Positions 3,135 through 31,034 of a DNA stretch of 64,000 nucleotides are shown piece after piece. The translations under genes and the position numbers were made by a program. Numbering within the stretch: position 1 is the first letter of the stretch; each line of letters starts with the position of its first letter. The stretch is from an uncultured Pyrinomonadaceae bacterium (GTDB lineage: Bacteria > Acidobacteriota > Blastocatellia > Pyrinomonadales > Pyrinomonadaceae), in contig CAXTPS010000006.1 in NCBI GenBank assembly GCA_964246305.1, forward strand, positions 97,338 to 161,337. The letters are read 5' to 3'. The notes under the pieces were generated by a model that was not told where the DNA came from, did not search any database, and was given only the letters and a program-made list of their open reading frames with translations.

Positions 3135-3578
3135 ATGGCAGACAAAAGCAGACAGGCAAAAGACGAAGCGCGCGGCAAGCCTTCCGTAGAAGCCCCGCGA
3201 GCTGTGCAGGAGTCGCACGGCTACCGCGAGCGCGTGTTTGAGATTGTGCGCCTCATCCCTTCCGGGCGCGTGATGACTTACGGGCAGCTCGCGGACATCC
3301 TGGGCGAAGGCTACACGCCGCGCACGGTCGGCTTTGTGATGCACGCGGCTGACGAAGAGACGACTCCGTGGCAGCGCGTCATCAACTCGCAGGGTGCGTG
3401 CTCGACAGGGCGCGTCATCCTTCCGCCCGACAAACAGCAGCGCATGCTCGAAGCCGAAGGCGTCAAGTTCGACGCACGCGCACGCTGCGACCTGCGACAA
3501 TATCGCTGGTCGCCCGACGAAGACGAAAAGCAGGACGGGAGGCAGGATGATGAACAGCCGAGCCTCTTCAGCGATTAA
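3135..3578 (+). CDS. MGMT-family DNA-binding domain protein (alkyltransferase-like)
   Basis: VFEIVRLIPSGRVMTYGQLADILG....TPRTVGFVMH...PWQRVINSQG resembles the 6-O-methylguanine DNA methyltransferase DNA-binding domain, but I see no PCHR active-site motif. The start is uncertain; the ORF is open from 3009 and there is an ATG at 3135. Confidence 0.7.
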   Translation: MADKSRQAKDEARGKPSVEAPRAVQESHGYRERVFEIVRLIPSGRVMTYGQLADILGEGYTPRTVGFVMHAADEETTPWQRVINSQGACSTGRVILPPDKQQRMLEAEGVKFDARARCDLRQYRWSPDEDEKQDGRQDDEQPSLFSD

Positions 3579-3590
3579 CTGATTCAAATA

Positions 3591-3690
3591 TGGTCTTGGG
3601 GCTTTGGTCTTTGATGTTTGACTCAAGTTGAGCTTCATCGCTCAAGGCCGGAGTCGCGTGCAAAGCACAAAGACCAAAGCCAAAGACCAA
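3591..3690 (-). repeat. family-A intergenic hairpin element (CTTTGG-word arms + conserved core), copy A1
   Basis: The reverse complement reads ttggtctttggctttggtctttgtgctttgcacgcgactc...acatcaaagaccaaagcc. It shares the CTTTGCACGCGACTC left junction and the ACA(C)ATCAAAGA right junction with the other copies. Confidence 0.85.
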
Positions 3691-3709
3691 ATTCCCGTGA
3701 GGAATAAAA

Positions 3710-4123
3710 ATGAACAATGATCCCCTTGCCCCCAAAGCCCCTTATGACATCAGCCCGCCGCAATATTCGGTCGCGCATCATATGGTCACGAGCGCGTTTG
3801 AGCTGCCCGGCTTTCGCATCCGGCGCAATCTGGGAGTAGTGCGCGGCATCGTCGTCCGCTCGCGTAATGTCTTCGTCAACATCGGAGCGGCTCTGCAAAC
3901 TCTGGTCGGCGGTAACATCGTCGCATGGACACGGCTCTGCGAACAGACGCGCTCGGACGCCTTCGAGATCATGATTCAGCATGCGACCGAACTCGGAGCC
4001 AATGCGATTGTGTGCGCGCGTTATGATGCGACGGAAGTCGCAAGCGGCGCGACGGAAGTGCTGGCTTACGGCACGGCTGTCATCGTCGAGCCGACGGACG
4101 CCGGAGAGACCTATCGCGCATGA
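3710..4123 (+). CDS. YbjQ/UPF0145 family protein
   Basis: ELPGFRIRRNLGVVRGIVVRSRNVF...GANAIVCARYDATEV...AYGTAVIVE is typical of YbjQ-like proteins. Confidence 0.85.
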   Translation: MNNDPLAPKAPYDISPPQYSVAHHMVTSAFELPGFRIRRNLGVVRGIVVRSRNVFVNIGAALQTLVGGNIVAWTRLCEQTRSDAFEIMIQHATELGANAIVCARYDATEVASGATEVLAYGTAVIVEPTDAGETYRA

Positions 4124-4542
4124 AGGATGATGCGCTGACAGAAGTTGAGAGGCAACGTATCGCGGAGGCGTTCGGGGCTGTTCCATTCGCGCATATGCTC
4201 GGCCTTGAGCTGGTCTCGGTCGAGCGTGGCAAGGCCGTTTTGCGTCTCGGCATACGCGATGAGCTGAGACAGAATAACGGCATCATACATGGCGGCGTGA
4301 CTGCCTCGCTGATTGATACAGCCGCCGCTTTTGTCATCCTGACGCAGCTCAAACCAGACCAGACGACCACCACAGTTGACCTGACGATTCATTATCTGCG
4401 CCCGCTCGTCAAAGGGCAGGCAACGGCGCACGCGCGCATAGTTCGCGGCGGAAGACGCCTCATAATCGCTGCCGTGGACGTTTTCGACGAGGCGGAAAGC
4501 CTCGCGGCGACCGCCCTCACAACCTATATCCGGTTGACTTAA
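4120..4542 (+). CDS. PaaI-family hotdog-fold thioesterase
   Basis: PFAHMLGLELVSVERGKAVLRL...NNGIIHGGVTASLIDTAAA is a PaaI/YbgC-like signature. The start shows a 4-nt overlap with the upstream gene. Confidence 0.85.
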   Translation: MKDDALTEVERQRIAEAFGAVPFAHMLGLELVSVERGKAVLRLGIRDELRQNNGIIHGGVTASLIDTAAAFVILTQLKPDQTTTTVDLTIHYLRPLVKGQATAHARIVRGGRRLIIAAVDVFDEAESLAATALTTYIRLT

Positions 4543-4724: not shown

Positions 4725-6407
4725 ATGCACTCACTCTATCACGCTCTGCTCGCACAGCACCCGCGCCAGCTAACTTCTGTGCGCTGTGCCGAGCAGACTA
4801 TTGCCCAGCTTCATCGTTATTTCGAGGACGTAGTGCTTGAGAACAATCTGGCCGCGCTCGTCATCGAGAGCCTGCCTTTGATGAAGGAGCGTTCGCTGCG
4901 AGACCTTGCGCGCGTGCGCGAGGTCGGGCGGTCTGCGCATCGCGCCTTCTTTTTCGTTTCGCACGAAGATGCTCTGGGCGGTCTGCCGCTGCGGATGAGC
5001 GAACAGGATCGCGAGCCTATCCTTTTGAAGCGCACAGAGCACGAGCAGACGGACGAGCGTTTCGTCGTCATCGCGGACTCGCGCTTCTCTGCCCTGCTGG
5101 CTTCCGTGCGCGGCACGGACGAAGACGGCGGAGGCGACGAGGTTATCTGGTCGTTCGAGCCGGACATAGTTTATTCCGCGCTCGAATATCTGATGGCGCG
5201 CGTCAACGCCGAGCGATCTTTTCAGGCGAACGTCTTTACTGCGGCGGTCAAATCTTCGATGCCGAAGGCGACCTCGCTTCAGCTCACGGTCTCTGTCACG
5301 ACCAAGCTCGCGCGGCTCTTGCAGGAACAGGCCGGGCGTGAGATAGCGATCAACCGCATCGCCAACGCGATTCGTAATTCGCTTGAGCTTGAACAGCTTC
5401 TGCAAACGACCGTCAACGAAGTCGGGCGCGCGCTCAATGCACAGCACTGCGCGCTACGGGTCGAAGGCGAGGCCGGAAGCGAGCCTTTGAGCAACTTTTA
5501 TTTTCGTGACGGAGTGGATAGCGATAAAGCAGAGGACACGGAACTCAAGGGCGACCTTGACGCCTACAGCGTGCGGCTGGCACAGCGCCTCAACAATTAT
5601 GTGCTGGACGGGAGCGGCAGCGCAGACCCGCACGCGCAGAGCATACGCCCGCTCGCCGCTGTCTCGCTTATTTACAAGCAACATTCTATGGGCACGCTGC
5701 TCGTGCGCTCGGATAACCCGGAGCGCATCTGGCAGGAGAATGAAGTCCTGTTGTTACGCACGGTCGCAGATCAGGTGACCATCGCGGTTAATCACGCGCG
5801 CCTCTTCGCGCAGACGCAGCAACAGGCTCTGACAGATGTCCTGACGGGCTGCGTCAACCGCCGCTCGTTTGAAATGGAACTCGAAAAAGCTTTGCAGGTT
5901 GCGACGCGTATGCACCAGCCGCTTTCTCTCATCATGCTCGACGTGGATTACTTCAAGCTCGTCAACGACACACACGGCCACGACGCGGGCGATATGGCGC
6001 TGCGCATGTTCGCAGACGGTTTGCGCGAAGAGCTGCGCGGCGTTGACACGGCGGCGCGTTACGGCGGCGAGGAGTTCGCGGTGATTCTGCCGCAGGCGGA
6101 TGTGGACGGCGCGCTGATCGTGGCAGAACGTTTGCGGGCGCGTCTCGAAAATACGGAAATCCCGCGCGTCGGGTATATCACGGCCTCATTCGGCGTCGCC
6201 ACATTTCCGATGCACGCCAATTCGCGCGACAGTCTTGTCTCAGCCGCAGACCGCGCTCTTTATGATGCCAAGAACTCCGGGCGCAACCTCGTGCGCAGCC
6301 CGCAAGTCACTCCGATCACCCTCACGGATGAAATGTTCGAGCTTAACGAAATCTCAGACGACGCGCAGGATAAGCAGGCTGAAGCCTTTCCTCCAATCTT
6401 AGTTTAA
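4725..6407 (+). CDS. diguanylate cyclase with N-terminal DICT-like domain, GAF domain and GGDEF domain
   Basis: The C-terminus has LTGCVNRRSF...DVDYFKLVNDTHGHDAGD...ARYGGEEFAVIL, an intact GGEEF site. The middle region is GAF-like. The N-terminal ~200 aa (FVVIADSRFSALLASV...WSFEPDIV) resemble a DICT domain. Confidence 0.9.
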   Translation: MHSLYHALLAQHPRQLTSVRCAEQTIAQLHRYFEDVVLENNLAALVIESLPLMKERSLRDLARVREVGRSAHRAFFFVSHEDALGGLPLRMSEQDREPILLKRTEHEQTDERFVVIADSRFSALLASVRGTDEDGGGDEVIWSFEPDIVYSALEYLMARVNAERSFQANVFTAAVKSSMPKATSLQLTVSVTTKLARLLQEQAGREIAINRIANAIRNSLELEQLLQTTVNEVGRALNAQHCALRVEGEAGSEPLSNFYFRDGVDSDKAEDTELKGDLDAYSVRLAQRLNNYVLDGSGSADPHAQSIRPLAAVSLIYKQHSMGTLLVRSDNPERIWQENEVLLLRTVADQVTIAVNHARLFAQTQQQALTDVLTGCVNRRSFEMELEKALQVATRMHQPLSLIMLDVDYFKLVNDTHGHDAGDMALRMFADGLREELRGVDTAARYGGEEFAVILPQADVDGALIVAERLRARLENTEIPRVGYITASFGVATFPMHANSRDSLVSAADRALYDAKNSGRNLVRSPQVTPITLTDEMFELNEISDDAQDKQAEAFPPILV

Positions 6408-6634: not shown

Positions 6635-8380
6635 ATGCACGACCTGAAGAAATTCGCGCGTTATTTTCGCCCTTATAAATTACATATCATCACGGGTATC
6701 ATCTGTATCCTCGCTTCGGTCGTCTTCGGTCTATTGATTCCGCGCTCGGTCGGTCTCGCCATTGACGATCTGAAGCAGGGCGTGACGTGGACATCAATCA
6801 CGATGGCGAGCCTCAAGATTCTGGGCTTGAGCCTCGTGAGCGGCATCTTTCTCTTCCTGCAACGCCGCATACTCATCAACATGTCGCGCCACGTCGAGTA
6901 CGACCTGCGCAGAGATTTTTACGCGTATCTGGTAGATCAGCCCCTCTCATTTTTTCACGAGCACCGGACGGGCGATTTGATGGCTCGCGCGACCAACGAT
7001 CTGGCGGCGGTCAGGCAGCTCGCGGGGCCGATGATTATGTACACGCTGCAAACGGTCTTCGTCGTCATGCTCGTCCTGCCTTTGATGCTGAAGATAAGTG
7101 TGCGGCTGACGTTGCTGCTTTTTGTGACGATGCCGCTCGTCTCTTTGACCGTCAAGTATTTCGGCCAGCAGGTACACATGCGCTTTGAGAAGATTCAGGA
7201 CTTCTTCGCGCAGATTACAGCACGCGCGCAGGAGAATTTTGCGGGCGTGCGCGTCGTCAGAGCTTACGCGCAGGAGGGAGCGGAGATTGCCGCTTTCGAC
7301 ACCCTGAACCGTCAATACGCCGAACGCAATCTGAGCTTGGTTCGCATCTCAGCGATGATGCGTCCGCTGCTGCAATTTGTGATCGGCGCGGGCTTCGTGT
7401 TGATTATCTGGGTCGGCGTCCCGCTCACGGTCAGCGGAGCGATGACCACCGGCGAGTTCGTGACCTTCAATCTCTATCTCTCGCGCCTGATCTGGCCGCT
7501 GATCGCGCTCGGCTACGTGGTCAATCTTTACCAGCGCGGCACCGCGAGCCTCAAACGCATCAACTCGATTCAAGCGATTGAGCCTACGATTAAGGATGCG
7601 GCGGGCGTGCGCGTGCAGCCGCCGGTTAGAGGACGGATAGAATTTAAGAATCTGACCTTTCGTTACCGCGAGACGGACGAGCCTGTGCTGCGCGACATCA
7701 ACCTAGTCATCGAAGCAGGACAATCCGTAGCTTTCGTCGGGCGCACGGGCAGCGGCAAATCCACTCTGGTCAACCTGATTACGCGTCTCATAGATGCTCC
7801 ACAGGGCACAGTGCTGGTTGACGATATTTCCGTGCGTGATTATCCGCTCGCGCAGCTCAGGGAGAGCATAGGATACGTGCCGCAGGAAACTTTTCTTTTC
7901 AGCGACACGCTGGCAGACAACATCGCTTTCGGCGTCTTGAAGGCGGAGCGCGCTGACATCGAATGGGCTGCGGAGATTGCCGGGCTGACGGATGATATAC
8001 GCAGTTTCCCGAACGGCTTCGAGACGATGGTCGGCGAGCGCGGCATCACGCTCTCCGGCGGTCAGAAGCAGCGCACGGCGATTGCCCGCGCAGTGCTCCG
8101 CCAGCCGAAGATTCTGATTCTGGACGACTCGCTCTCGTCCGTAGACACTTACACGGAAGAGAAAATCTTAGCCCAACTGCGCGGGGTCATGCGCGAGCGG
8201 ACGAGCATCATCGTCTCGCACAGGATTTCGACGGTGCGTGATGCAGACCTCATCTGCGTGCTCGACGAAGGACGTATGGTTGAGCGCGGGACGCATGATG
8301 AACTGCTGGCGCGCGGCGGCGAGTATGCGGACTTGTACGAGCGTCAACTGTTGGAAGAAGAGCTGGCAGCGACCGGCTGA
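6635..8380 (+). CDS. ABC exporter, fused permease/ATPase subunit (heterodimer partner 1)
   Basis: A six-TM N-terminal domain is followed by Walker [10 protein letters not shown], signature LSGGQKQR and Walker B ILILDD. The ATG at 6635 is preferred over the TTG at 6605. Confidence 0.9.
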
Positions 8381-19712: not shown

Positions 19713-22565
19713 CTACCAGCGACCGAACAGCACGAATGGAGACCAGAAAAATGGATGCGGCTGCTCCTTCATCAACCTGAGCTGAGCATGGCGCAAGGCC
19801 GTTGCAGCAGACGCTCCGGCGCACAATCTCTGATAAAAATCGGTCATCAGGTTCGCGGTCGCCTCATCATCCACCGTCCAGAGGCTCATCAGTAACGACG
19901 GCGCGCCCGCGGAGAAGAAGCCGCGAGCCAAGCCTATCAACTCGTTGCCGGGAGCGACCGCGCTCATGCCCGTCTCGCACGCGCTCAGCGCGACCAGCTC
20001 GCACCTTTGCAGCTCAAGCGCGTAAGCATCCCGCACGGTCAGCCAGTCATTCGACAGCCGCAGAGATGAGAAGAGCGGATTGTCCGGTCGGAACTGACCA
20101 TGACAGGCAAGGTGTAACACGTCTGCCTGCGCTGCGTTCTCTTTGACGGCAGCGAGCGTGCCGCGCTCGTCAAGCAACACAGTGGCTTCCGGAAAAAGCG
20201 GCGCGAGCGCGAGGACTTCATCTCTCACGCGTGGCGTCTGCTCATCCGGCACTCCGACCAGCACTGCGCGCTGCAGGGAACGCGGCTCGCGCGCGAGGCA
20301 ATGAGTGAGGACGACCGCGCTCGGAGCGTAACAGACTTCGCGCCGCTCTATCACGTAATCAATCCCGTCATGCAACGCATGAAAAGGAACGTAATGCAGC
20401 GCGCGATGTGGAACGATCACGAGGCGACGTTCCGCGCCGATAAATTCTTCGAGGGGTGCGAGCAGCACATCATAGAGCGCCTGCAAATGATGAAGCGCAC
20501 GCCTGGTCAGATGCGGCAGGTGCTTGCGCATGCGTTCCGCGCCGAAGCGCAGCGTGTCTATTTGAAAACGGAGCTGTTCGAGCTGTGCTTCGACCTCGCG
20601 CTCGCTGCCCAAGTGACGTTTGACGGACACACCTTCGCCCGTCAGGACAAATGCCAGCAGCTCTCCGTCAAGGCTCGTGTATTCGACGAGCGCGGCGTCT
20701 TCTCCGAGCGCGCTTTGAAGCTGCTCTATGTTCAGCGTCTCGACCGAAGCGGAGAGCGCGGGTTGTTCGCCGCGATGCTGCAACTGGCGCGTGATCTCAA
20801 GCGTGCGATGCTCGCGCTCTCTGACTTCCCTTTGCAGCGAGGCCATCTCGTCCGCGCTCTCCGAAGCATCGCTTTTCTGCGCGGGACGGTTGATCTGGCT
20901 ATAAAACCAGTTGAGCTGCTCGCGCAGGTCTTGAAGCTCTGCGATGAGTTCGGCCTCGAAAGCGTCGCGCGGCTGCGGCAGGACTTTGAGCGCGCCGCCG
21001 AGTATATCCACCAGAGCGCGTGAGCGAGCGCGCTCGACAAAGCTCAAAGCCTCAGCCGCGCGATCCGTCTCAACATCCGATAGATAGAGCCGCACCATCT
21101 CGTCGTATGGCACGAGCTTGTCAGAAAAGAAGGACGCGCGAAACTCTTCCGCAGGCAAGGGCGCACGCATGGTCTCGATTAACTCTATCGCGCGCTTGAA
21201 CGCCGCCTCAGCTCTCACGGCATCGCCAACGCCCGCCGCCAGCAGGCCGAGCGAAGTGTGGCAACGCTGCTCGACCTGCGGCTGCGCCTGCTCCTCCGCG
21301 TCATGCAGCGTCGCTTCCAGGATAGCGCGTGCTTCAGCTGTCGAGCCGAGAGCGCGCAATGCGTCGCCGCGCAGCCAGCGCGCCATCAGCAAATTTCTCC
21401 ACACGCCCGCGGCAGAGAGCGGAGCTTCGGCCTCTTCGGCAGCCAGCATCGTCGCCGGATAATTCCCCGAAGCGTGATGAAGCTGAGCCATCGTGAGCGC
21501 GACCATCGCTTCGCCGAGCGCATTGCCTTCGACTGCGTAAAGCCTGCGCGCATCCGTGAGCAGTTGTTGCGCCTGTGTCATCTGCCCCAGCAGGATTGCC
21601 GCGCGCCCGTGATGCGCCAGAGCCAGAGCCTGCTCCGCGCGCATCGACAGTTCTGCAAACATCGGCGTCACGCGCTCGTAAAGCTCTGTCGCTTCTGGAG
21701 CGAGATTCAATTCCAGATAAGCGTCCGCTATCTCCAGCGCGGAGACGGCGGATTCATGCGGCATCTGCATCTCCGCATACTTGCGCCGCGCGCGTTCAAG
21801 ATAATCGAGCGCGCGGTCATAACGCCCCTGAAAGAGCGCAAGGTTGCCCATGCTCGATTCTATTCCCGCCTGCGTCGCCACCATCCCGGCGGCCTCTGCG
21901 CGTTCGAGAGCCTGATCGTAAAGCTGCTCGGCTGAGCGGAAATTATGTTTTAAGGATTGAATATAGGCCAGACAATTATCGAGCGTAGCAAGCTGTTTGT
22001 CGTCGCTCAGAGCCTCAAAGCGCACACGCGCCGCAAGAAAGAAATGCTCCGCTTCATCATAGCGGTCGCGACGCCAGTAAATGTTGCCGATGTTGTGCTC
22101 GATCTTTCCGGCGGCGAGAATATCGTCGTGCGCTTTTAAGACTTCCAGAGCGCGCAGGCCGCACGCGATGGCCTCTTCGTAACGTCCGACGATGGCGAGC
22201 GCGATGAGCTTGGAGACCTGCGTTGAGGCAGCAGTGCCTTCGAGATTTAAAGAGACGAAACGCGCCTCTGCATCATCCAGATGCTCTATGGCGCGTTCCA
22301 TCTGTCCTGCGACCAGAGAGGCCAGCCCCGCGCTCCATGCGGCGCACGCAGCGACCTCCCCTGCTTGTGTGTATCGTGTGAAGGCTTCGAGCGCAGCAGC
22401 CGCCGCAGTCGTGCGCGCGGGGTCTGACGCCCATGAGTCGAGGCAGATGTCTTTGAGCGTGTAAGCCAGCGCGGCGTCGGCCAACAGCGCGTGACTCCGC
22501 AAGAGAGCTTCGCGCTCCGCATCGTCCGACGCGATGAGCAGCGCTGCCAACTCCGCACGTTCCAT
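19713..22565 (-). CDS. TPR-repeat + CHAT-domain protein (caspase-like protease superfamily), cytoplasmic
   Basis: About 500 aa of TPR-like repeats are followed by a coiled region and then a CHAT domain. Both dyad contexts are present: VLHLACHGQF (His) and LVALSACETG (Cys). Confidence 0.9.
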   Translation of the reverse strand: MERAELAALLIASDDAEREALLRSHALLADAALAYTLKDICLDSWASDPARTTAAAAALEAFTRYTQAGEVAACAAWSAGLASLVAGQMERAIEHLDDAEARFVSLNLEGTAASTQVSKLIALAIVGRYEEAIACGLRALEVLKAHDDILAAGKIEHNIGNIYWRRDRYDEAEHFFLAARVRFEALSDDKQLATLDNCLAYIQSLKHNFRSAEQLYDQALERAEAAGMVATQAGIESSMGNLALFQGRYDRALDYLERARRKYAEMQMPHESAVSALEIADAYLELNLAPEATELYERVTPMFAELSMRAEQALALAHHGRAAILLGQMTQAQQLLTDARRLYAVEGNALGEAMVALTMAQLHHASGNYPATMLAAEEAEAPLSAAGVWRNLLMARWLRGDALRALGSTAEARAILEATLHDAEEQAQPQVEQRCHTSLGLLAAGVGDAVRAEAAFKRAIELIETMRAPLPAEEFRASFFSDKLVPYDEMVRLYLSDVETDRAAEALSFVERARSRALVDILGGALKVLPQPRDAFEAELIAELQDLREQLNWFYSQINRPAQKSDASESADEMASLQREVREREHRTLEITRQLQHRGEQPALSASVETLNIEQLQSALGEDAALVEYTSLDGELLAFVLTGEGVSVKRHLGSEREVEAQLEQLRFQIDTLRFGAERMRKHLPHLTRRALHHLQALYDVLLAPLEEFIGAERRLVIVPHRALHYVPFHALHDGIDYVIERREVCYAPSAVVLTHCLAREPRSLQRAVLVGVPDEQTPRVRDEVLALAPLFPEATVLLDERGTLAAVKENAAQADVLHLACHGQFRPDNPLFSSLRLSNDWLTVRDAYALELQRCELVALSACETGMSAVAPGNELIGLARGFFSAGAPSLLMSLWTVDDEATANLMTDFYQRLCAGASAATALRHAQLRLMKEQPHPFFWSPFVLFGRW

Positions 22566-22568
22566 TCG

Positions 22569-23162
22569 CTATGCCTTTAATTCAAATTCGGGGACTTCGA
22601 TCTCTGTGCCGGAGAAATTAATAACGAGAGAATATTTGCCGGAAGGCACACGCGGCAGCGTGAACTCGCAAAGGTCGTTCATCAACGCGCTTTCCTCAAC
22701 GCTCTCGCTACGCAGCTCGACCTGCCCGCTCTCGCATTCGCCTAGCACCTGACCCGAAACCACCCATGCGCCATCGTCCGGCGCAACGCGCAGGTCAAGA
22801 TCATGATCGCCGACGCTGAAGAGAAGCTGGCGCGCGACCGACTGGCCTGAGCGGACGCCGAAGGCCGGAGACAACTGGCGGCTATCAAAGCTCAGGACTG
22901 CCATCACTCGCTGCATGACGGAGGGCTTTTGTTCAGCCGCACGCGGGCGAAATAGATTGAGCGCGTGCGAGATAACATCACGCGGGGCGTCTTCCGCCAG
23001 ATCAGTCCGCATGAGATTGACGAGTTGTTCGAGGCGAGCCACTTGCGCGGCGCAATCCGAACAATCCGCCAGATGTGAGCGCGTCGCTTCGCTCTCTTCG
23101 TGCGTCTGGCGATTCTCGGCCAGATCGGCCAGTTTTTCGAATGGAATGTGTTGAGTCTTCAT
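22569..23162 (-). CDS. putative anti-sigma factor (zf-HC2-like N-terminus, beta-sandwich C-terminus, no TM helix)
   Basis: It has an HLADCSDCAAQVARLEQL motif. It lies between the ECF sigma gene and the CHAT gene, 3 nt from the CHAT start. The start is set at the ATG at 23162. Confidence 0.65.
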   Translation of the reverse strand: MKTQHIPFEKLADLAENRQTHEESEATRSHLADCSDCAAQVARLEQLVNLMRTDLAEDAPRDVISHALNLFRPRAAEQKPSVMQRVMAVLSFDSRQLSPAFGVRSGQSVARQLLFSVGDHDLDLRVAPDDGAWVVSGQVLGECESGQVELRSESVEESALMNDLCEFTLPRVPSGKYSLVINFSGTEIEVPEFELKA

Positions 23163-23260
23163 CTGCCTGCCAACTTTGTTAATTCGGGGGTTATCAAACT
23201 TTTCAAAACCGTCACTCAACACAACAGTGCGTAATTCGTGCCGGGAAATACATCACGGAA

Positions 23261-23827
23261 TCAATTTTCAATCAGACGCAGCAATTTTTGCAAACAACGG
23301 GCGCGGGTCGGGCCGATGCTGCCTTCGGTCGTCCCCAGTGCCTGTGCTATCTCGCCATAACTAAGAGAGTTAGACTGATAAAAGAGCATCTCGATTAATT
23401 TGCGGCAACGCTCATCCATCGAGGCGACCGCGCGGCGCACACCCTCCTGCTCTTCAAGGCGCAGCATCACTTCGTCGGGTAAAGGCGCGTCGTCAGGGAC
23501 TCGCGCGGCCTCGCTCTCATCCCCGTCGTCCACATTATTGAATGAGCCTGCATGACTCTTCTCGCGCGAGATGAATCGCCAGGTCATACGCCGCGCCGTC
23601 GTCACTATCCACGCCTGAATCCGCTCAGGCTGTTCTATCCCGTCAAGCTTTCTGAGCAGCGTGGCAAACACATCCTGAAAGACTTCCGCAGACTGATCTT
23701 CATCAAGCCCCGCGCGGCGTGGAATCGTATAAATCAGCCGCTGGTAACGATTGACCAGAGCTTCCCACGCGGCCTCATCACCCTTGCGACACGCCAGCAC
23801 CAGATTTTCATCGCTGATTGAACTCAT
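23261..23827 (-). CDS. ECF-type RNA polymerase sigma-70 family factor
   Basis: Region 2 is AWEALVNRYQRLIYTIPRR...DVFQDVFATLLR. Region 4 is LSYGEIAQALGTTEGSIGPTRARCLQKL. The start is set at MSSISDENL (23827). Confidence 0.85.
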   Translation of the reverse strand: MSSISDENLVLACRKGDEAAWEALVNRYQRLIYTIPRRAGLDEDQSAEVFQDVFATLLRKLDGIEQPERIQAWIVTTARRMTWRFISREKSHAGSFNNVDDGDESEAARVPDDAPLPDEVMLRLEEQEGVRRAVASMDERCRKLIEMLFYQSNSLSYGEIAQALGTTEGSIGPTRARCLQKLLRLIEN

Positions 23828-23968
23828 CCCGTTTGACGAATAATCATTTTCCTGTGATGAAAGAATAGGATGCACGTTCTTGTTTTGTCTAGCGAATGAA
23901 GACCACAAAGCCTGAATTACTCCTCAATAAAAAAATTCTTAAGCGGCAACGTATTTTTCGCACTGCCC

Positions 23969-24382: not shown

Positions 24383-24663
24383 AACGGTTTTCTCAAGGGC
24401 GCAAAACGCCGCGAGAGGTTTAACGTTAAGAGAGCGGCAAGTTTTATGCCGCCGGAGTCACGTAAAAATATTTCAGGAAAGGCGCGAGCCGCGCGTCTTG
24501 TAGCTGGATTTTAAATTGTCGTATCAGAACACATTCACCCGCCCGTGTTCTATTCCGAAACCTCAAATATAAGAGAAAGGGGCAAAGCTTTTTAAGCTTC
24601 GCCGCGCCGTATAAACTTTTCTTCATCACTTCATTCCTGATATATTCAGCTTAGGAGATACTT

Positions 24664-24921
24664 ATGACCAACGAAGAGATGGAGAGAGGTATTGAGTTCC
24701 TGCTCAAGTGTCAGGCTAGCTTTGAAGTGCAGCTTGCACAGACCAGCCAACATATCGAAGTGATGGCAGACACGCACACAGAGTTCACGCGATTTGTGCA
24801 GGGTTATATCGCAGCCCAAAGCGAACTCAATCAGTCTCTACGGGAAACATTGCGGGCGCTAACGCTGGCGCAGGCGCGCACGGATGTGCGTTTGAGCGAT
24901 CTTGAGGGCAGTAGTTCTTAA
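24664..24921 (+). CDS. hypothetical small coiled-coil protein (85 aa)
   Basis: An AGGAG sequence lies 8 nt upstream of the ATG. The protein is helical and Gln/Glu-rich (MTNEEMERGIEFLLKCQASFEVQLAQ...). GC is reduced relative to the flanks. Confidence 0.5.
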   Translation: MTNEEMERGIEFLLKCQASFEVQLAQTSQHIEVMADTHTEFTRFVQGYIAAQSELNQSLRETLRALTLAQARTDVRLSDLEGSSS

Positions 24922-25121
24922 TCTAATGTAAATACTTTGCTCCGTTGAATTTGATTCCGAGCCCTCAAATCATCTCACACGGTTGAGGCCTGCCTATCCG
25001 ATTGGTTCAACAAGTTCTTATTCAAGTCAAGACTTTTAGACGTTAGGGTGAAGAGATCGGACCTTGGGGCAAATTAGTAATGAGACAATGGCTATTTAAA
25101 TCAAAGTGAGAGTTATGCTGA

Positions 25122-25763
25122 TTAGAATGTAACCATTAGCCGCTCAACACTGTCACGCGCCCTACCAGCCAAACCGGACTTGTCAAATATCTGTTTCGCG
25201 CGCTGCTTGAGGGCAACATCTCCAGTGAGCAGGTATGATCTTCGCAAGTAATCTATCGCCAGTAATGGGTTTGCCTCGAGGAGATCGGCCAAAGTCTGGT
25301 AATATCTTGCTCGCTCCTGAAGCGATTTAAGGAAATCTCCTAGGTTCCGAGTTAAACGAGTATCCATTTCGATATACTCAGTACGAACAAGATCGGATGG
25401 TAGCTTCACGTTACCGATCTTAATGACTACAGTCTCCCTTCCATAGGCGTGCATCCAACCCAGTTCGTAAAAAATGTTTGCCATTGTCTCTGAGCTAATC
25501 CCTTCGTGGACAATGGCGATTCCGACTGGACAGGCAACTGCCAGCCCCCAAATTTTAAGTAAGAAGTCCTTACCGGTAGTTACGCTCGCTGCATCAATAA
25601 TCTTGAATTTAGCTCGTCTCAGGATTTCGGTCACACGCTTTTTCGTGTCACGTACCTCAGCAGATATAGGCTTACCCATTGCTGCCATCAAGAAGCATGT
25701 CCGTGCACGCCATTTCACCGGAGCGCTATGGACATCACCATCTGTGGGTCTATAGAAAATCAT
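25122..25763 (-). CDS. TIR-like / nucleoside-2-deoxyribosyltransferase-like (flavodoxin-like fold) domain protein with C-terminal helical domain
   Basis: The motif order is CFLMAAMGKP (beta1), then FKIIDAASV...PVGIAIVHEGISSETMANIFYELGWMHAYGRETVVI, then LPSDLVRTEYIEM. This matches the cFviMpFg...npNVfYElGyA.algK.vi...lPfDl..r.i.Y pattern of TIR-like/NDT-like modules as I remember it. The ATG overlaps the stop of the upstream gene (ATGA). The locus is AT-rich. Confidence 0.55.
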   Translation of the reverse strand: MIFYRPTDGDVHSAPVKWRARTCFLMAAMGKPISAEVRDTKKRVTEILRRAKFKIIDAASVTTGKDFLLKIWGLAVACPVGIAIVHEGISSETMANIFYELGWMHAYGRETVVIKIGNVKLPSDLVRTEYIEMDTRLTRNLGDFLKSLQERARYYQTLADLLEANPLLAIDYLRRSYLLTGDVALKQRAKQIFDKSGLAGRARDSVERLMVTF

Positions 25764-26113
25764 TTTCGCCTAGAGCACGATGCTGCGATTGCCACACCTT
25801 TGTAAGCGCCGTCGCTCTTTTTATGTGAGATGATCATTCCCGCGGATGTATCGATTTTCACGAAATGTCCGCTCCGTGGATTTCTTAGTTGAGAAAGTGC
25901 GCTTGCCGCAAATGTCTTCGTCTTAGAACTCGACCGTCCGCCATGCAATGTAGCAGATGCTTTCTTCGCGCCCTTCGCAGTGGACGTTGAGCGACTGGCT
26001 TTCGAGGAAGAATGGGCAGTTTTGGCCGCCCCCTTCGACGTGCGAGATGTTGAGGCCTTTCTCGGCGCGCTTGAGGCCTTTGATATAACTTTCTTACTAT
26101 TTTTTTTAGCCAT
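25760..26113 (-). CDS. Lys/Ser/Ala-rich basic protein (histone-H1-like low-complexity N-terminus) with a short C-terminal SGHFV-type module
   Basis: MAKKNSKKVISKASSAPRKASTSRTSKGAAKTAHSSSKASRSTSTAKGAKKA... is followed by RNPRSGHFVKIDTSAGMIISHKKSDGAYKGV. A GGAGG sequence lies about 8 nt upstream of the ATG. It is coupled to the downstream TIR-like gene. Confidence 0.5.
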   Translation of the reverse strand: MAKKNSKKVISKASSAPRKASTSRTSKGAAKTAHSSSKASRSTSTAKGAKKASATLHGGRSSSKTKTFAASALSQLRNPRSGHFVKIDTSAGMIISHKKSDGAYKGVAIAASCSRRK

Positions 26114-26187
26114 TATAAACCTCCAACCTCATTAAATCGCTAGGACTATAACTTGTAGTTTCACTTGCGCGCAAACATTGCGTTACC

Positions 26188-26205
26188 GTCTAATGACAAT
26201 TAGAC
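26188..26205. promoter_or_regulatory. perfect 7-4-7 palindrome (candidate operator) upstream of the basic-protein gene
   Basis: GTCTAAT-GACA-ATTAGAC lies about 75-90 nt upstream of the start codon at 26113. Confidence 0.3.
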
Positions 26206-26255
26206 CTCAAGACACATTGTTTCCCATTTGGGGTGGCGGCTAAAACGAATGTGGG

Positions 26256-27668
26256 CTATTCCGAAACCGCTTCGTCTTGCGTGATGACATCGTCCACGAT
26301 GGCGTCGTCCACGTTTCTCAGTCCAAACTTTTTCAGCTTGCGATAGAGCGTCGGGCGATGCAGGTCGAGTATCTCCGCGGTCTTCTTGACATTGCCGCCA
26401 GTGCGGTCGAGCGTCTGCGCGATGGCTTCGCGCTCGATCTCTTCGAGGGTCATAAAGGGCGGGATGACGCAGAGGGTCGAAGAGGTGCGGCTGCCCTGTA
26501 GCTCTTCAGGGAAATTCTCAGGCATGATCTGCGGCGTCTGGCAAAAGAGCACTGCGCGCTCAAGCACGCTCTCCAACTCGCGTATGTTGCCCGGCCAATT
26601 GTAGCGCGAGAGGACTGCGAAAGCCTCCTGCGAGATGCCGCGTATCTGCTTGTTATATTTTTCGCTGTAACGTATCAGAAACCGCTCGGCAAGGAGAGCG
26701 AGGTCTTCATGTCGCTCACGAAGCGGCGGCACTTTTAGCTTGATCGTGCTGATGCGAAAGTAAAGGTCTTGTCTGAAAGTTCCCTCCTGCGAAGCCTTCA
26801 CTGTGTCGCGGTTCGTCGCGGAGACGAGACGAAAATCAACATTGATTTCATGCTCATCTCCCAGACGACGCAGCTTGCGCTCCTGCAAGACGCGCAGGAG
26901 TTTCGTCTGCAAGTGCAGGGGCATCTCCGCTATCTCATCAAGCAGCAGAGTCCCGCCCGCCGTCGCTTCGATCAAGCCGCGCTTGTCGCGGTCTGCCCCC
27001 GTGAACGCGCCCTTCTTGTAGCCGAAGAGTTCGGATTCGATCAGCTCTTGCGGAATCGCCGCGCAGTTGATGCGTATGAAGGGACGATCCGCGCGATTGC
27101 TCTCCATGTGAAAAGCTGTGGCGATAAGCTCCTTGCCAGTCCCCGACTCGCCTTCGATCAAAACGGAAGCGTCGGATTTGGCAGTGGCGCGAATCGTCTC
27201 ATAAATCTCAAGCATCTTCCGGCTGCGACCGATCATCCCGAAAGCCTCGCTCTCGTCGGCCAGCGTGCGCTTGAGCTGTTTGTTCTCGTTGCGAATCTTG
27301 CCGAACTCCGAAGCGCGCTCGGCGAGCATGATGACCTGATCGGGCGTGAAAGGTTTTTCGATGTAGTAGTACGCGCCGCGCTTGATGGCCTCGATGGTCA
27401 CGTCGAGCGAGCCGTGCGCCGTCATCAGTATCACTTCCGTTTCGGGATTGTCCGCCTTGATGTGCGAGATCAAATCAATCCCGCTCGTGTCCGGCAGACG
27501 CAAATCCGTGAACACCAGATCGAACGGCGGCCCGTCAAGCAACCGCTTCGCCTCCGCCCCGTCAGCCGCCGTCTTGACCTCGCACGCATGCTCGCTCAAG
27601 ATCATTTCAAGAGCATCCCTCACGCTGCTCTCGTCGTCAATAACGAGGATTCTGCAACCAGTTATCAT
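26256..27668 (-). CDS. sigma-54-dependent response regulator (NtrC family: REC-AAA+-Fis HTH)
   Basis: The REC domain has ILVIDDE...DLVFTDLRLPD. The AAA+ domain has GESGTGKELIA, the GAFTGA loop (KGAFTGAD) and ESELFGY. The C-terminal HTH is NVKKTAEILDLHRPTLYRKLKKF. Confidence 0.9.
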   Translation of the reverse strand: MITGCRILVIDDESSVRDALEMILSEHACEVKTAADGAEAKRLLDGPPFDLVFTDLRLPDTSGIDLISHIKADNPETEVILMTAHGSLDVTIEAIKRGAYYYIEKPFTPDQVIMLAERASEFGKIRNENKQLKRTLADESEAFGMIGRSRKMLEIYETIRATAKSDASVLIEGESGTGKELIATAFHMESNRADRPFIRINCAAIPQELIESELFGYKKGAFTGADRDKRGLIEATAGGTLLLDEIAEMPLHLQTKLLRVLQERKLRRLGDEHEINVDFRLVSATNRDTVKASQEGTFRQDLYFRISTIKLKVPPLRERHEDLALLAERFLIRYSEKYNKQIRGISQEAFAVLSRYNWPGNIRELESVLERAVLFCQTPQIMPENFPEELQGSRTSSTLCVIPPFMTLEEIEREAIAQTLDRTGGNVKKTAEILDLHRPTLYRKLKKFGLRNVDDAIVDDVITQDEAVSE

Positions 27669-29211: not shown

Positions 29212-30739
29212 ACTCTCTCTCCCGTGTTGGAACTGCCGGCAGCTCGACTATGAAACGAGTGAAACTGCCTTCCTCGCTCTCGACCGAAATCGTCCCGCCG
29301 TAATCGCGTATGATGCCGAAGCTCAGGCTCAGGCCGAGACCCGTCCCGCCATGATCGCGGCGCGTGGTAAAGAACGGATCGAAAATCTTATCGAGGTCTT
29401 CTTTCCTGATACCCGTGCCGCTGTCGTAGAACTCGATGCGGACGACCTGCTCCGCTCCAGCGCGTGCGACGGCGCGTGCTGTGATGCGAAACAGTTTCTC
29501 TTCTCCCGCCTTCGCCTTGAGCGCGTGCTGCGCGTTGCTGATCATGTTGACGACGACCTGACGCAGGCGCGAGCCGTCGGCTTTGACCGGAGGCAGATTT
29601 TCGGCCACGTCTATCTCAACTTTGATGCCGCCCTTTTCCAGTTGATGTCCGAAGAGCGAGGTCGAGTTATTGATAATCTCCGCGATATTGACGCGCGACA
29701 ATTCGTGCGCGTCGCGTCGCGCGAACGTCAACAGGTTGCGAACGATTTTCGTAATCCGCTCGCCCTCATCTATGATTCCGTCAATCAGACGCGATTCAAA
29801 ATCCGTGCGCTGCTTTTCTTCATCCTTGAGAAGCTGCGCGAAGTTGATGATGCCGTTGAGCGGATTGTTAATCTCGTGTGCGACGCCTGCGGAAAGCTCG
29901 CCGATTGAGGCCAGCTTGGAGGATTGAAAGAGCTGCCGCTGCATCTCCGCCTTCTCGGCTTCGAGCCGCTTGCGCTCTGAAAGGTCACGTATGATTAAGA
30001 TGATCAGACGCTCTTTGCCCGTCGCCAGCGTGCTGAATGAAGCGGAGACGGGTACGGTCGCGCCGACCGGAGTTTGAATCTCTAACTCCTGCTCGCTGGA
30101 TTCGGACTCGGAGCTGACGACGAAGGCCGCGAGGCGCGCATAAAGCTCCGCCAGCATGCCCCTGATCGGACATTGATAAAGCTTTCTAAGATCAAGCTCC
30201 GGCAGTTGCCCGGCATTTGTTTGAACGATTGTTTCGTCGATCCACTTCGACAAGCTTTCGGAGATCGTGCCGTCCGGGTTGCGCTGTGCCAGCTCGCGCA
30301 CGTTTCTGCCGGTCAACTCTTGCGGCCCGTAGCCCAGAATCTCGCCGAACTTGCGATTGACCTGCACGATTTTGAAATCGGGAACCGAGACGACGCCGAT
30401 GCCGTCGTTGGCATGCTCAAAGAGCAGGCGGTAACGCTCTTCGCTCTCGCTCAACTTGCGCTGCTGGCGGCGCACGACTCCGAGCAGGAGCGTGACGACG
30501 ATGCTGTCCACCGTGACGGAGATGAAGAAGTGTTCGGTGCGCTGTTGAATCAGGCGACGCCGCTCGGTATTCTCGACGCCCGGATAACGCGTATCCACCC
30601 AAGCATAGAATGGATTGAGCAGAACTTTCTCCCACGTCAGGATGACCGCGATGGTGAGCGTAGTGGTGAGGAGGATGAAGAAGAGAATAATCTTTAGATT
30701 GTTCTTCTCGTTAACGATGAAGCCCTTAGGCATGCTCAT
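29186..30739 (-). CDS. membrane sensor histidine kinase (2 TM + PAS + HisKA + HATPase_c)
   Basis: The PAS domain has RYRLLFEHANDGIGVV. The H-box is AGVAHEINNPLNGI. The G-boxes are DSGTGI and GTGLGLS. The start is ambiguous (30766, 30739 or 30733). The stop overlaps the next gene by 26 nt. Confidence 0.85.
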   Translation of the reverse strand: MSMPKGFIVNEKNNLKIILFFILLTTTLTIAVILTWEKVLLNPFYAWVDTRYPGVENTERRRLIQQRTEHFFISVTVDSIVVTLLLGVVRRQQRKLSESEERYRLLFEHANDGIGVVSVPDFKIVQVNRKFGEILGYGPQELTGRNVRELAQRNPDGTISESLSKWIDETIVQTNAGQLPELDLRKLYQCPIRGMLAELYARLAAFVVSSESESSEQELEIQTPVGATVPVSASFSTLATGKERLIILIIRDLSERKRLEAEKAEMQRQLFQSSKLASIGELSAGVAHEINNPLNGIINFAQLLKDEEKQRTDFESRLIDGIIDEGERITKIVRNLLTFARRDAHELSRVNIAEIINNSTSLFGHQLEKGGIKVEIDVAENLPPVKADGSRLRQVVVNMISNAQHALKAKAGEEKLFRITARAVARAGAEQVVRIEFYDSGTGIRKEDLDKIFDPFFTTRRDHGGTGLGLSLSFGIIRDYGGTISVESEEGSFTRFIVELPAVPTREREYADSLVGR

Positions 30740-30885
30740 CCCCCTCCAGACCCGATAGCCCGTCATCTTCGTAAGCTTAGGCTTGATCTAATTTTTAATT
30801 GATTATCCATCGAATTGGCAAGGCCAGAAAAAGTTTCGGTGAAATCCGTGTGAAGAACTGAGACCCTTGGAAGGATAAAATCAAC

Positions 30886-30914
30886 TTGGCTGCGTTCTAT
30901 AAGTGAGATAATAT
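30886..30914 (+). promoter_or_regulatory. candidate sigma-70-type promoter for the WD40-caspase gene
   Basis: TTGGCT-N17-TAATAT lies about 120 nt upstream of the ATG at 31035 in an AT-rich divergent spacer. Confidence 0.3.
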
Positions 30915-31034
30915 TTGATGACTGGAATATCAGTTAACCCGGCTCATCTTATTTTGAGCGGGCGTGTCGAATAGAAAGAACCGTTCACTAACTCACGTGA
31001 ATTTGATCTCGATTAAACCACCAAAAAGGTCGAT

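Follow-up and report, generated by a model that had tools for sequence, protein, structure and literature searches.

A 64,000-nucleotide stretch of contig CAXTPS010000006.1 from an uncultured Pyrinomonadaceae bacterium (assembly GCA_964246305.1; this whole stretch is called the window here) contains two minus-strand genes, recognised alike in the open reading frame (ORF) listing and by direct reading, that encode a small basic protein of 117 amino acids (25760-26113) and an enzyme-like protein of 213 amino acids (25122-25763). We interpret the pair as a conflict module, either toxin-antitoxin-like or acting by abortive infection, that is complete in two genes and spreads horizontally, and we put the probability of this reading at roughly one half. 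Genome comparisons show the pair to be an accessory, cross-domain, cassette-like mobile unit. Neither the pairing nor the fold of the small partner is part of any described system that we found.

Strict pairing of the two genes

Relatives of the 213-residue enzyme were collected by a pattern-based scan for which each species was represented by a single genome (n=185,579), and which returned 132; the locus statistics refer to the best 80 of these 132, upstream DNA being present in 79. When the last 47 residues of the small protein were used as tblastn query against the 80 loci, the partner module was found directly upstream of the enzyme gene in 79/79, and the co-occurrence in other genomes on which the original prediction depended is thereby established. 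The junction is mostly an ATGA, GTGA or TTGA overlap, the ATGA of the window having been described correctly at the outset together with the ORF pair itself. Partner and enzyme co-diverge (Mantel r 0.29 compared to a maximum of 0.11 in 500 permutations), and there is no conserved third gene among the 80 loci. The small upstream gene, the 4-nucleotide overlap and the strict co-occurrence correspond to the bicistronic organisation of type II toxin-antitoxin systems, and the resemblance extends to the patchy mobile distribution and to the presence of several divergent copies in some genomes.

The same resemblance lends itself to a rival explanation, in which the pair would be nothing more than an addiction or selfish cassette, toxin-antitoxin-like, that persists and spreads since its loss is harmful and has no anti-phage role, the phage-borne copies of the partner being functionally unrelated. 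Antitoxin-first gene order, the short overlap, strict pairing and the patchy distribution by horizontal gene transfer all agree with it.

Two independent in-frame fusions of partner and enzyme were seen (L040, 5850-6650, and P0286, of 267 and 268 amino acids; L and P numbers are our own handles), joined at ...RK(K/E)KK-MI... within A-rich lysine codons. They may be real or may be homopolymer indel artefacts; L040 at least resembles a long-read metagenome-assembled genome (MAG).

Fold and predicted active site of the enzyme

The AlphaFold2 model of the 213-residue protein, built on an alignment of 50 homologues, is of high confidence (predicted local distance difference test score, pLDDT, 89.9; predicted template modelling score, pTM, 0.87) and has residues ~20-135 arranged as an alpha/beta core, with residues 137-213 forming a helical domain behind it. 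In a Foldseek comparison with the PDB, the top ranks are taken by nucleoside 2'-deoxyribosyltransferases (NDTs), human DNPH1 and the CMP N-glycosidase BcmB, with template modelling (TM) scores on target of 0.64-0.70, and SARM1, SPARTA and other TIR domains rank after these; entries 8qc0, 8qhr, 4jen and 7o62 were matched with probability 1.0 and TM on target of 0.48-0.70. The corresponding matches in BFVD, a viral structure library, are CMP/hmCMP hydrolase, NDT, Cap12/Pycsar TIR and DUF4406. The core of the model is three-layered alpha/beta and flavodoxin-like, as is characteristic of the NDT/TIR-like superfamily. Eleven residues (G64, D66, N96, E100, G102, G108, S123, D124, R127, D171 and R175) show no variation in 80/80 loci. 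On the basis of the model, the enzyme is solidly assigned the NDT/DNPH1/CMP-glycosidase/TIR-like fold of N-ribosyl hydrolases and transferases, and by its presumed equivalence to the superfamily glutamate we infer Glu100 to be the catalytic residue. A TIR/NDT-like fold with an invariant glutamate in a YELG motif had been proposed from motif order alone; it is upheld by the model, by Foldseek against both libraries and by the conservation across the 80 loci, and every motif quoted in that proposal is present in the translations.

At the level of sequence, PF10137 (CAP12/Pycsar TIR, formerly 'predicted nucleotide-binding protein containing TIR-like domain') is the sole Pfam family matched by the enzyme, with E 0.0023 and 18.4 bits, which is below the gathering cut-off of 24.7 bits; the aligned stretch, residues 74-134 against model positions 48-118, includes Glu100. 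One homologue (P0353) carries a precomputed PF10137 call and, taken together with the sub-threshold score of the window's enzyme, this places the family at the fringe of the PF10137 model. One family member is named 'nucleotide-binding protein' by its source annotation, and phrog_3634 is also matched. NCBIfam returned nothing for the enzyme and PADLOC noise-level matches only; Pfam gave no match to PF05014 (NDT) or DUF4062 at E <= 1; phmmer and the enzyme-family profile found nothing meaningful among PDB sequences; and hhalign of the family against human DNPH1 gave a probability of 2%. The homologue set holds at least 860 proteins, nearly all of 213 amino acids and without Pfam calls. The enzyme represents a novel branch, so far without annotation, on the margin of a known superfamily.

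With NDT, DNPH1 (Rcl) and MilB-BcmB, its best structural matches, the enzyme shares the alpha/beta core and, presumably, the acidic residue at the start of a helix (E-x-G motif), whereas it shows no sequence similarity to them detectable by profile, has an extra 77-residue helical domain and belongs to an accessory mobile two-gene unit where theirs are metabolic genes. The fold ranking brings in a second rival explanation, accessory nucleotide or nucleic-acid processing, in which a DNPH1/MilB/NDT-like N-glycosidase or base-exchange enzyme for nucleotides (perhaps modified ones), DNA or RNA would be accompanied by a nucleic-acid-binding subunit for targeting or activation, in the service of sanitation, salvage or modification. 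As NDT, DNPH1 and the CMP/hmCMP hydrolases stand ahead of the TIR NADases, this explanation is slightly favoured on chemistry, and it agrees with the strong purifying selection and near absence of pseudogenes (the enzyme gene is disrupted in 1/80 loci and the genes are intact in 79/80); the failure of profile searches to connect the enzyme to NDT or DNPH1 speaks against it. For an addiction cassette, the conservation is itself a difficulty, the enzyme sequence being unusually conserved for a toxin.

A serine-recombinase-like identity of the 213-residue protein, which would explain mobility, was considered and rejected, with no resolvase among the fold matches and no N-terminal serine motif.

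The small basic partner

Across the family, the partner typically comprises 48-58 amino acids with the consensus M..KKKDIVQVKNPKSGHYVKIDRSAGKIISHKKSEGPYKGVPIARKRKK and is strongly basic, with a median isoelectric point (pI) of 10.6 and a net charge of +11. In the window it carries in addition a basic low-complexity stretch of K, S, A and T, estimated originally at about 70 residues and measured here as 72 residues of net charge +18, followed by a core of 45 amino acids. A partner of ~50 amino acids without this tail is found in 75/79 loci, and the tail is missing from about 95% of the family; in its long form it is limited to the window and close acidobacterial relatives (L001, L002, L008, L093, L094, P0418, P0457, P0458 and P0487), in which it is made of repeats of a ...SKSxAGSALSQ peptide. 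Compared with the nearest relative, L093, the tail has 0 indels over 76 codons and its differences fall on the three codon positions as 16/12/34, as they do in the core; from this indel-free, codon-position-biased divergence it is apparent that the tail is translated. With the coding signature in the tail and the core conserved upstream of the enzyme in 79/79 loci, the doubt that the basic ORF might not be translated or conserved is removed. The description of the protein as H1-like, by contrast, is not supported as it stood: there is no Pfam or NCBIfam match to histone H1 or to Hc1-Hc2 nucleoid proteins and, the tail being confined to one clade, the likeness is a clade-specific elaboration and not a defining feature.

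Modelling of the core gave a meander of three beta-strands (pLDDT about 80-85), for which Foldseek found no significant structural neighbour (best E 1.3). The core is matched by two models of ~56 amino acids, PADLOC PDC-S38 (E 2.6e-8, 32 bits, residues 74-108 against positions 20-54 of 57) and phrog_12550 (E 1.2e-8), neither of which includes an NDT/TIR-like partner. PDC-S38, which consists of a single gene, is one of 145 'guilt-by-embedding' candidates (10.1101/2024.01.29.577857), and no mention of it or of the partner-enzyme pair was found in the literature. The partner has about 2,000 homologues. An exhaustive profile search gave 628 clusters at 50% identity, nearly all short stand-alone proteins, with no recognisable fused domain among the 628 clusters.

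So much charge in ~50 amino acids, increased by the basic repeats of the tail in one clade, is in keeping with a nucleic-acid-binding subunit and hence with nucleotide processing. The addiction reading has to contend with a partner devoid of a known antitoxin fold.

Partner homologues in phages

Nine IMG/VR contigs encode the partner module without the enzyme, the core being 44-66% identical, and in 5/9 the partner lies in the head/packaging module. There it follows a portal gene immediately or is placed between that gene and one for a minor head protein of the SPP1-gp7/Mu-F type (L084), adjoins head-morphogenesis genes (L088, L090), comes behind a portal/adaptor-like protein (L091) or lies near the large terminase (L086). 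In L085 the partner was seen to have a long acidic C-terminal extension. P0462 is a further non-paired context and, together with the phage solo copies, shows that the partner is not always accompanied by the enzyme, though the enzyme is always accompanied by the partner.

The location in a DNA-packaging/head module would suit a DNA-associated protein and so lends weight to nucleotide processing. Both proteins of the pair have distant PHROG relatives, and the low-GC islet around the pair holds about 560 nucleotides of unshared DNA with an orphan ORF. A decaying prophage or element remnant, having no current cellular function, could account for these features; yet the genes are intact in nearly every locus, eleven residues are invariant, coding constraint reaches into the tail, the pair has no phage genes beside it where it occurs in cellular genomes, and the enzyme gene is missing from viral collections. 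We consider such a remnant highly improbable and already disfavoured.

Mobility and target duplications

The islet that holds the pair has a GC content of 0.470, the minimum among equal-sized segments of the 64 kb (mean 0.559, sd 0.028), and GC at third codon positions is 0.48 in the two genes compared with 0.66-0.74 in the flanking genes. Relatives whose enzymes are 73-87% identical to that of the window have only the pair in common with it, every one, those of 81-87% identity included, at a different site, and nucleotide similarity to L093 spans no more than the interval from 26193, 80 nucleotides upstream of the small gene, to the enzyme stop. The mobile unit thus delimited has ~1.07 kb (a leader of ~80 nucleotides, the small gene and the enzyme gene) and sits within a 1.69-kb low-GC insertion. 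At both ends of the insertion there is a direct repeat of 18 nucleotides (24545-24562 and 26251-26268), 16/18 identical with an exact 13-nucleotide core, which occurs in 2 copies in the 64 kb as against 0.06 expected; as read from the DNA, it marks the true insertion boundaries.

Four independent sites besides the window have duplications of host sequence, of about 33-200 nucleotides (Table 1). The sequence duplicated in L033 is the 3' terminus of a gene for an amidohydrolase. Four Vicinamibacterales genomes carry the cassette inside a respiratory operon, between an NqrC-type gene (GATMTSRGV motif) and an overlapping gene of the Rnf/Nqr family, and the duplication of one gene's end and the other gene's start leaves both reading frames intact. 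When repeats of at least 18 nucleotides were sought within 600-nucleotide flanks, they were present at 7/64 real cassettes (four independent sites) and at 11/951 pseudo-cassettes of the same size drawn from the same loci. No recombinase is encoded in the cassette. The length of the duplication is variable, hence a fixed-stagger transposase does not fit, and to our knowledge no standard transposase or integrase yields long, variable target duplications of this kind. There is no universal DNA motif at the cassette ends. The empty Vicinamibacterales site gave 0 matches in two scans of metagenome contigs (one exact, one codon-degenerate), and so there is no direct before/after pair for the insertion.

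In hosts not related to one another (e.g., L001, L002, L052, L058 and L071), a TTAGAA(T)-like -10 element recurs 25-50 nucleotides ahead of the small gene, and its recurrence suggests that the cassette carries its own promoter. Directly downstream of the cassette in L001 (2981-3235), an ORF resembles by eye the N-terminus of an IS6-family transposase.

The proposal of a horizontally acquired two-gene cassette is well borne out by the lowest GC of the window, the deviation at third codon positions, the differing sites, the flanking duplications and the 79/79 pairing. Insertion into housekeeping loci, including the nqrC-like/Rnf-Nqr site, where duplication leaves the genes of the host whole, is also what an addiction cassette would be expected to show, although the unit has no mobility gene for addiction to serve and does not occur in plasmid collections.

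Distribution and genomic neighbourhood

In the pattern-based scan, the enzyme had relatives in about 0.07% of species genomes, spread over at least 15 phyla plus the Methanosarcinaceae. Among the best 80, which are of constant length and 40-76% identity, the bacterial carriers belong to Acidobacteriota, Gemmatimonadota, Bacteroidota/Rhodothermota, Bacillota, Desulfobacterota, Nitrospirota, Chloroflexota, Actinomycetota, Verrucomicrobiota/Kiritimatiellota, Planctomycetota, Pseudomonadota and several candidate phyla, and the archaeal carriers to the Methanosarcinaceae. One MAG (Candidatus Spongiihabitans thiooxidans; L053 and L059) has two copies, and their enzymes are only 60% identical, which indicates independent acquisitions.

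A survey of the 135 nearest neighbours across cassette loci showed mostly housekeeping genes, about 4-6 being defence-like; examples are HemL and HemB in Methanosarcinaceae, Dxs in Desulfobacterota, amidohydrolases, NrdD and Rnf/Nqr. Embedding in conserved housekeeping synteny had been named in the original prediction as an outcome contrary to it. This applies as far as the character of the neighbours goes, but not to the synteny, since insertion sites differ between lineages. The shortage of defence genes nearby is also in line with an addiction cassette, and the housekeeping setting with nucleotide processing. The latter reading, however, fits poorly, as a metabolic role, with an occurrence that is so rare and scattered across domains and with the differing sites of near-identical copies, and no conserved linkage to nucleotide-metabolism genes exists in the 80 loci.

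Two loci have surroundings of another kind. The L082 copy lies amid PemK and HI1420 toxin-antitoxin genes and Bro-N. The nearest relative of the window's pair (L093, 2945-9509; enzyme 87% identical) adjoins a NACHT-Mrr_cat STAND protein, DUF4760, a cytidine-deaminase-like protein and a Ser/Thr kinase, and is defence-island-like in its surroundings, unlike most loci.

Layout of the locus

The features of the islet and of the comparison loci are collected in Table 1. Hand counts of GC made on the islet and beyond it in the original prediction (0.333, 0.450 and 0.567) were exact. The orphan 85-residue ORF of the islet has no homologue among the 80 loci, and its Pfam, PADLOC and NCBIfam matches are at noise level; an Rfam scan of the islet gave no match, and a scan for consensus promoters and terminators stayed at background level. 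Downstream of the receiver gene, at 19713-23908, translations judged by eye suggest a sigma factor of the extracytoplasmic function (ECF) type (23261-23908), a putative anti-sigma protein (22569-23222) and a 950-residue TPR protein (19713-22565) with a C-terminus resembling a CHAT (caspase-like) domain. Another local GC dip, to 0.427, is found at 30650-30949, at the edge of the composition profile.

Table 1. Positions of the features of the two-gene cassette, its islet and flanks in the window, and of repeats and partner genes in other loci
Locus	Feature	Positions	Strand	Remark
Window	Gene of small basic protein, 117 aa	25760-26113	-	pI 11.8, net charge +25
Window	K/S/A/T low-complexity tail, residues 1-72	25898-26113	-	clade-specific, translated, missing from most family members
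Window	Conserved core of small protein, residues 73-117	25763-25897	-	predicted three-stranded beta-meander; matches PDC-S38 and phrog_12550
Window	ATGA stop/start overlap	25760-25763	-	translational coupling; same overlap type in most loci
Window	Gene of NDT/TIR-like enzyme, 213 aa	25122-25763	-	
Window	Alpha/beta N-ribosyl-hydrolase/transferase-like domain, residues ~20-135	25359-25706	-	from the model; PF10137 match sub-threshold
Window	GAA codon of invariant Glu100 (FYELG), predicted catalytic residue	25464-25466	-	catalytic role by analogy with fold family
Window	C-terminal helical domain, residues 137-213 (NPLLAIDYLRR, SVE..F)	25125-25355	-	conserved; presumed oligomerisation/regulatory stalk
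Window	Leader of ~80 nt travelling with both genes	26114-26193	-	presumed cassette promoter; nucleotide similarity to L093 begins at 26193
Window	Shine-Dalgarno GGAGG	26120-26124	-	6 nt upstream of the small-gene ATG
Window	AT-rich inserted islet, 1688 nt	24563-26250	.	GC 0.470, lowest in window
Window	Direct repeat, copy 1, GTGGGCTATTCCGAAACC on + strand	26251-26268	.	holds stop and last codons of sigma54-activator gene; left boundary in gene orientation
Window	Direct repeat, copy 2, GTGTTCTATTCCGAAACC	24545-24562	.	spaced 1706 nt from copy 1; target duplicate at the opposite end of the insertion
Window	3' part of islet	24563-25121	.	common to no relative of the cassette
Window	Orphan 85-aa helical ORF	24664-24921	+	opposite strand to the cassette genes
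Window	Terminator-like hairpin	24581-24603	-	only noteworthy hairpin in scan
Window	Flanking sigma54-type response regulator (Response_reg + Sigma54_activat + HTH_8)	26256-27668		
Window	Flanking CheY-like receiver, 137 aa	23969-24382		
L021	Flanking repeat	5665-5798 / 6678-6811		61 nt exact (about 134 nt at 89%)
L033	Flanking repeat	5462-5659 / 6695-6892		101 nt exact (about 198 nt at 93%)
L058	Flanking repeat	5765-5797 / 6679-6711		18 nt exact (33 nt at 91%)
L055, L061, L076, L077	Flanking repeat (four Vicinamibacterales genomes, one shared site)	around 5610-5763 / 6656-6764		52-109 nt exact
L076	Nqr-type flanking genes (Vicinamibacterales)	4920-5720, 6651-7364		
L077	Nqr-type flanking genes (Vicinamibacterales)	4943-5743, 6744-7364		
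L084	Phage partner ORF	3995-4153		
L087	Phage partner ORF	3569-3733		
L088	Phage partner ORF	3995-4150		
L090	Phage partner ORF	3929-4129		
L091	Phage partner ORF	3992-4159		

Discussion

TIR-like and NDT-like N-glycosidases represent a recurring immune effector chemistry from bacteria to humans. Understood as a conflict module, the pair would act through the enzyme as effector, with Glu100 serving to cleave an N-glycosidic bond either in NAD+ or in a nucleotide. The co-translated partner would serve as a stoichiometric regulator, either an inhibitor/antitoxin or a sensing subunit, which might owe to its charge an attachment to nucleic acid, and its loss or displacement (e.g., by phage infection or loss of the cassette) would unleash the enzyme and arrest the cell. 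The solo homologues of the partner in phage head/packaging modules could then represent a trigger-related protein or a counter-defence mimic.

The original statement that no named system has such a pairing agrees with PADLOC, Pfam, NCBIfam and the literature search. With Thoeris, CBASS and Pycsar the pair has in common the TIR or TIR-like N-glycosidase chemistry in immunity, whereas their defining partners (ThsA SIR2/SLOG/Macro, CD-NTase and pyrimidine cyclase, respectively) are not present or conserved near the cassette; for Thoeris in particular, there is neither a PADLOC match at the locus nor a ThsA-type neighbour. From the PF10137 proteins, the only Pfam family touched, the enzyme differs in lacking a fused cyclic-nucleotide sensor (SAVED/CNB), in having no cyclase neighbour in the 80 loci, in the N-terminal placement of its domain ahead of a unique conserved helical domain and in its constant pairing with a small basic protein. 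In function, the nearest precedents are TIR-like NADases from PF10137 and DUF4062. Of the DUF4062 systems, Swarozyc acts in abortive infection, has helical stalks and a catalytic E97, and is switched on by the phage portal (10.64898/2026.05.01.722283); Evangelion is a further member (10.64898/2026.06.25.731849). The two resemble the window's enzyme in a TIR-like domain of ~100 amino acids with a Glu near 97-100, then helical stalks, and in a patchy distribution through horizontal transfer; Swarozyc differs in being a single gene with a winged-helix AUX domain that resides in defence islands, while the system of the window has two genes and is not enriched in such islands. Activation of Swarozyc by a portal makes the head-module position of the partner homologues suggestive, and a portal link for the present pair is speculation. 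A short upstream protein as inhibitor of a defence toxin has precedent in Sofic (PMC12249575), and the upstream protein of the window is set apart from those of type II toxin-antitoxin systems by being extremely basic.

Several observations weigh against a conflict module. The best fold matches are nucleotide N-glycosidases, not NADases, and the antitoxin-type DNA-binding folds (ribbon-helix-helix, RHH; helix-turn-helix, HTH; AbrB; Phd) were not found in the partner by model, Foldseek or Pfam. Enzymes from archaea and bacteria are about 45-50% identical at a fixed 213 amino acids, which is unusual for arms-race genes. Enrichment in defence islands was not seen among the 135 nearest neighbours, the enzyme gene occurs 0 times in 50,697 GenBank phage records, 72,556 PLSDB plasmids and IMG/VR, and PDC-S38 is itself a predicted defence candidate only. 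In view of the evidence already set out on either side of each, we judge the pure addiction cassette to be unlikely, and accessory nucleotide processing no less so.

A joint reading, which we regard as a rather improbable one, takes up the phage context of the partner and the insertion signature together. The partner would be a domesticated phage head/packaging protein that serves as decoy or sensor for the effector, and the pair an integrase-less mobile cassette. It would silence the effector in uninfected cells until portal or packaging machinery, or the packaged DNA, captures it, upon which the N-glycosidase would kill or arrest the cell; phage-borne copies would be the trigger source or a mimic silencing the effector; and the ~1-kb cassette would insert into gene ends, even within operons, with target duplications of 18 to about 200 nucleotides.

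Lastly, the putative conflict module has importance beyond the window. The fold call itself is unsurprising, and what lifts the pair above a routine TIR-like candidate is its universal pairing, its reach from bacteria to archaea, the solo homologues located by phage portal genes and an integrase-less cassette with long duplications. As a system, the family is missing from Pfam, NCBIfam and PADLOC, and a partner of its type is not seen in Thoeris, CBASS, Pycsar or Swarozyc. The insertion signature poses a separate question, namely how integrase-less cassettes move. If the role in defence or as toxin-antitoxin is true, the pair would represent a new regulatory solution, in which a basic beta-protein of ~50 amino acids related to phage head-module proteins controls the effector, and it would do so in a very compact cassette of less than 1.1 kb that might find use as a tool.

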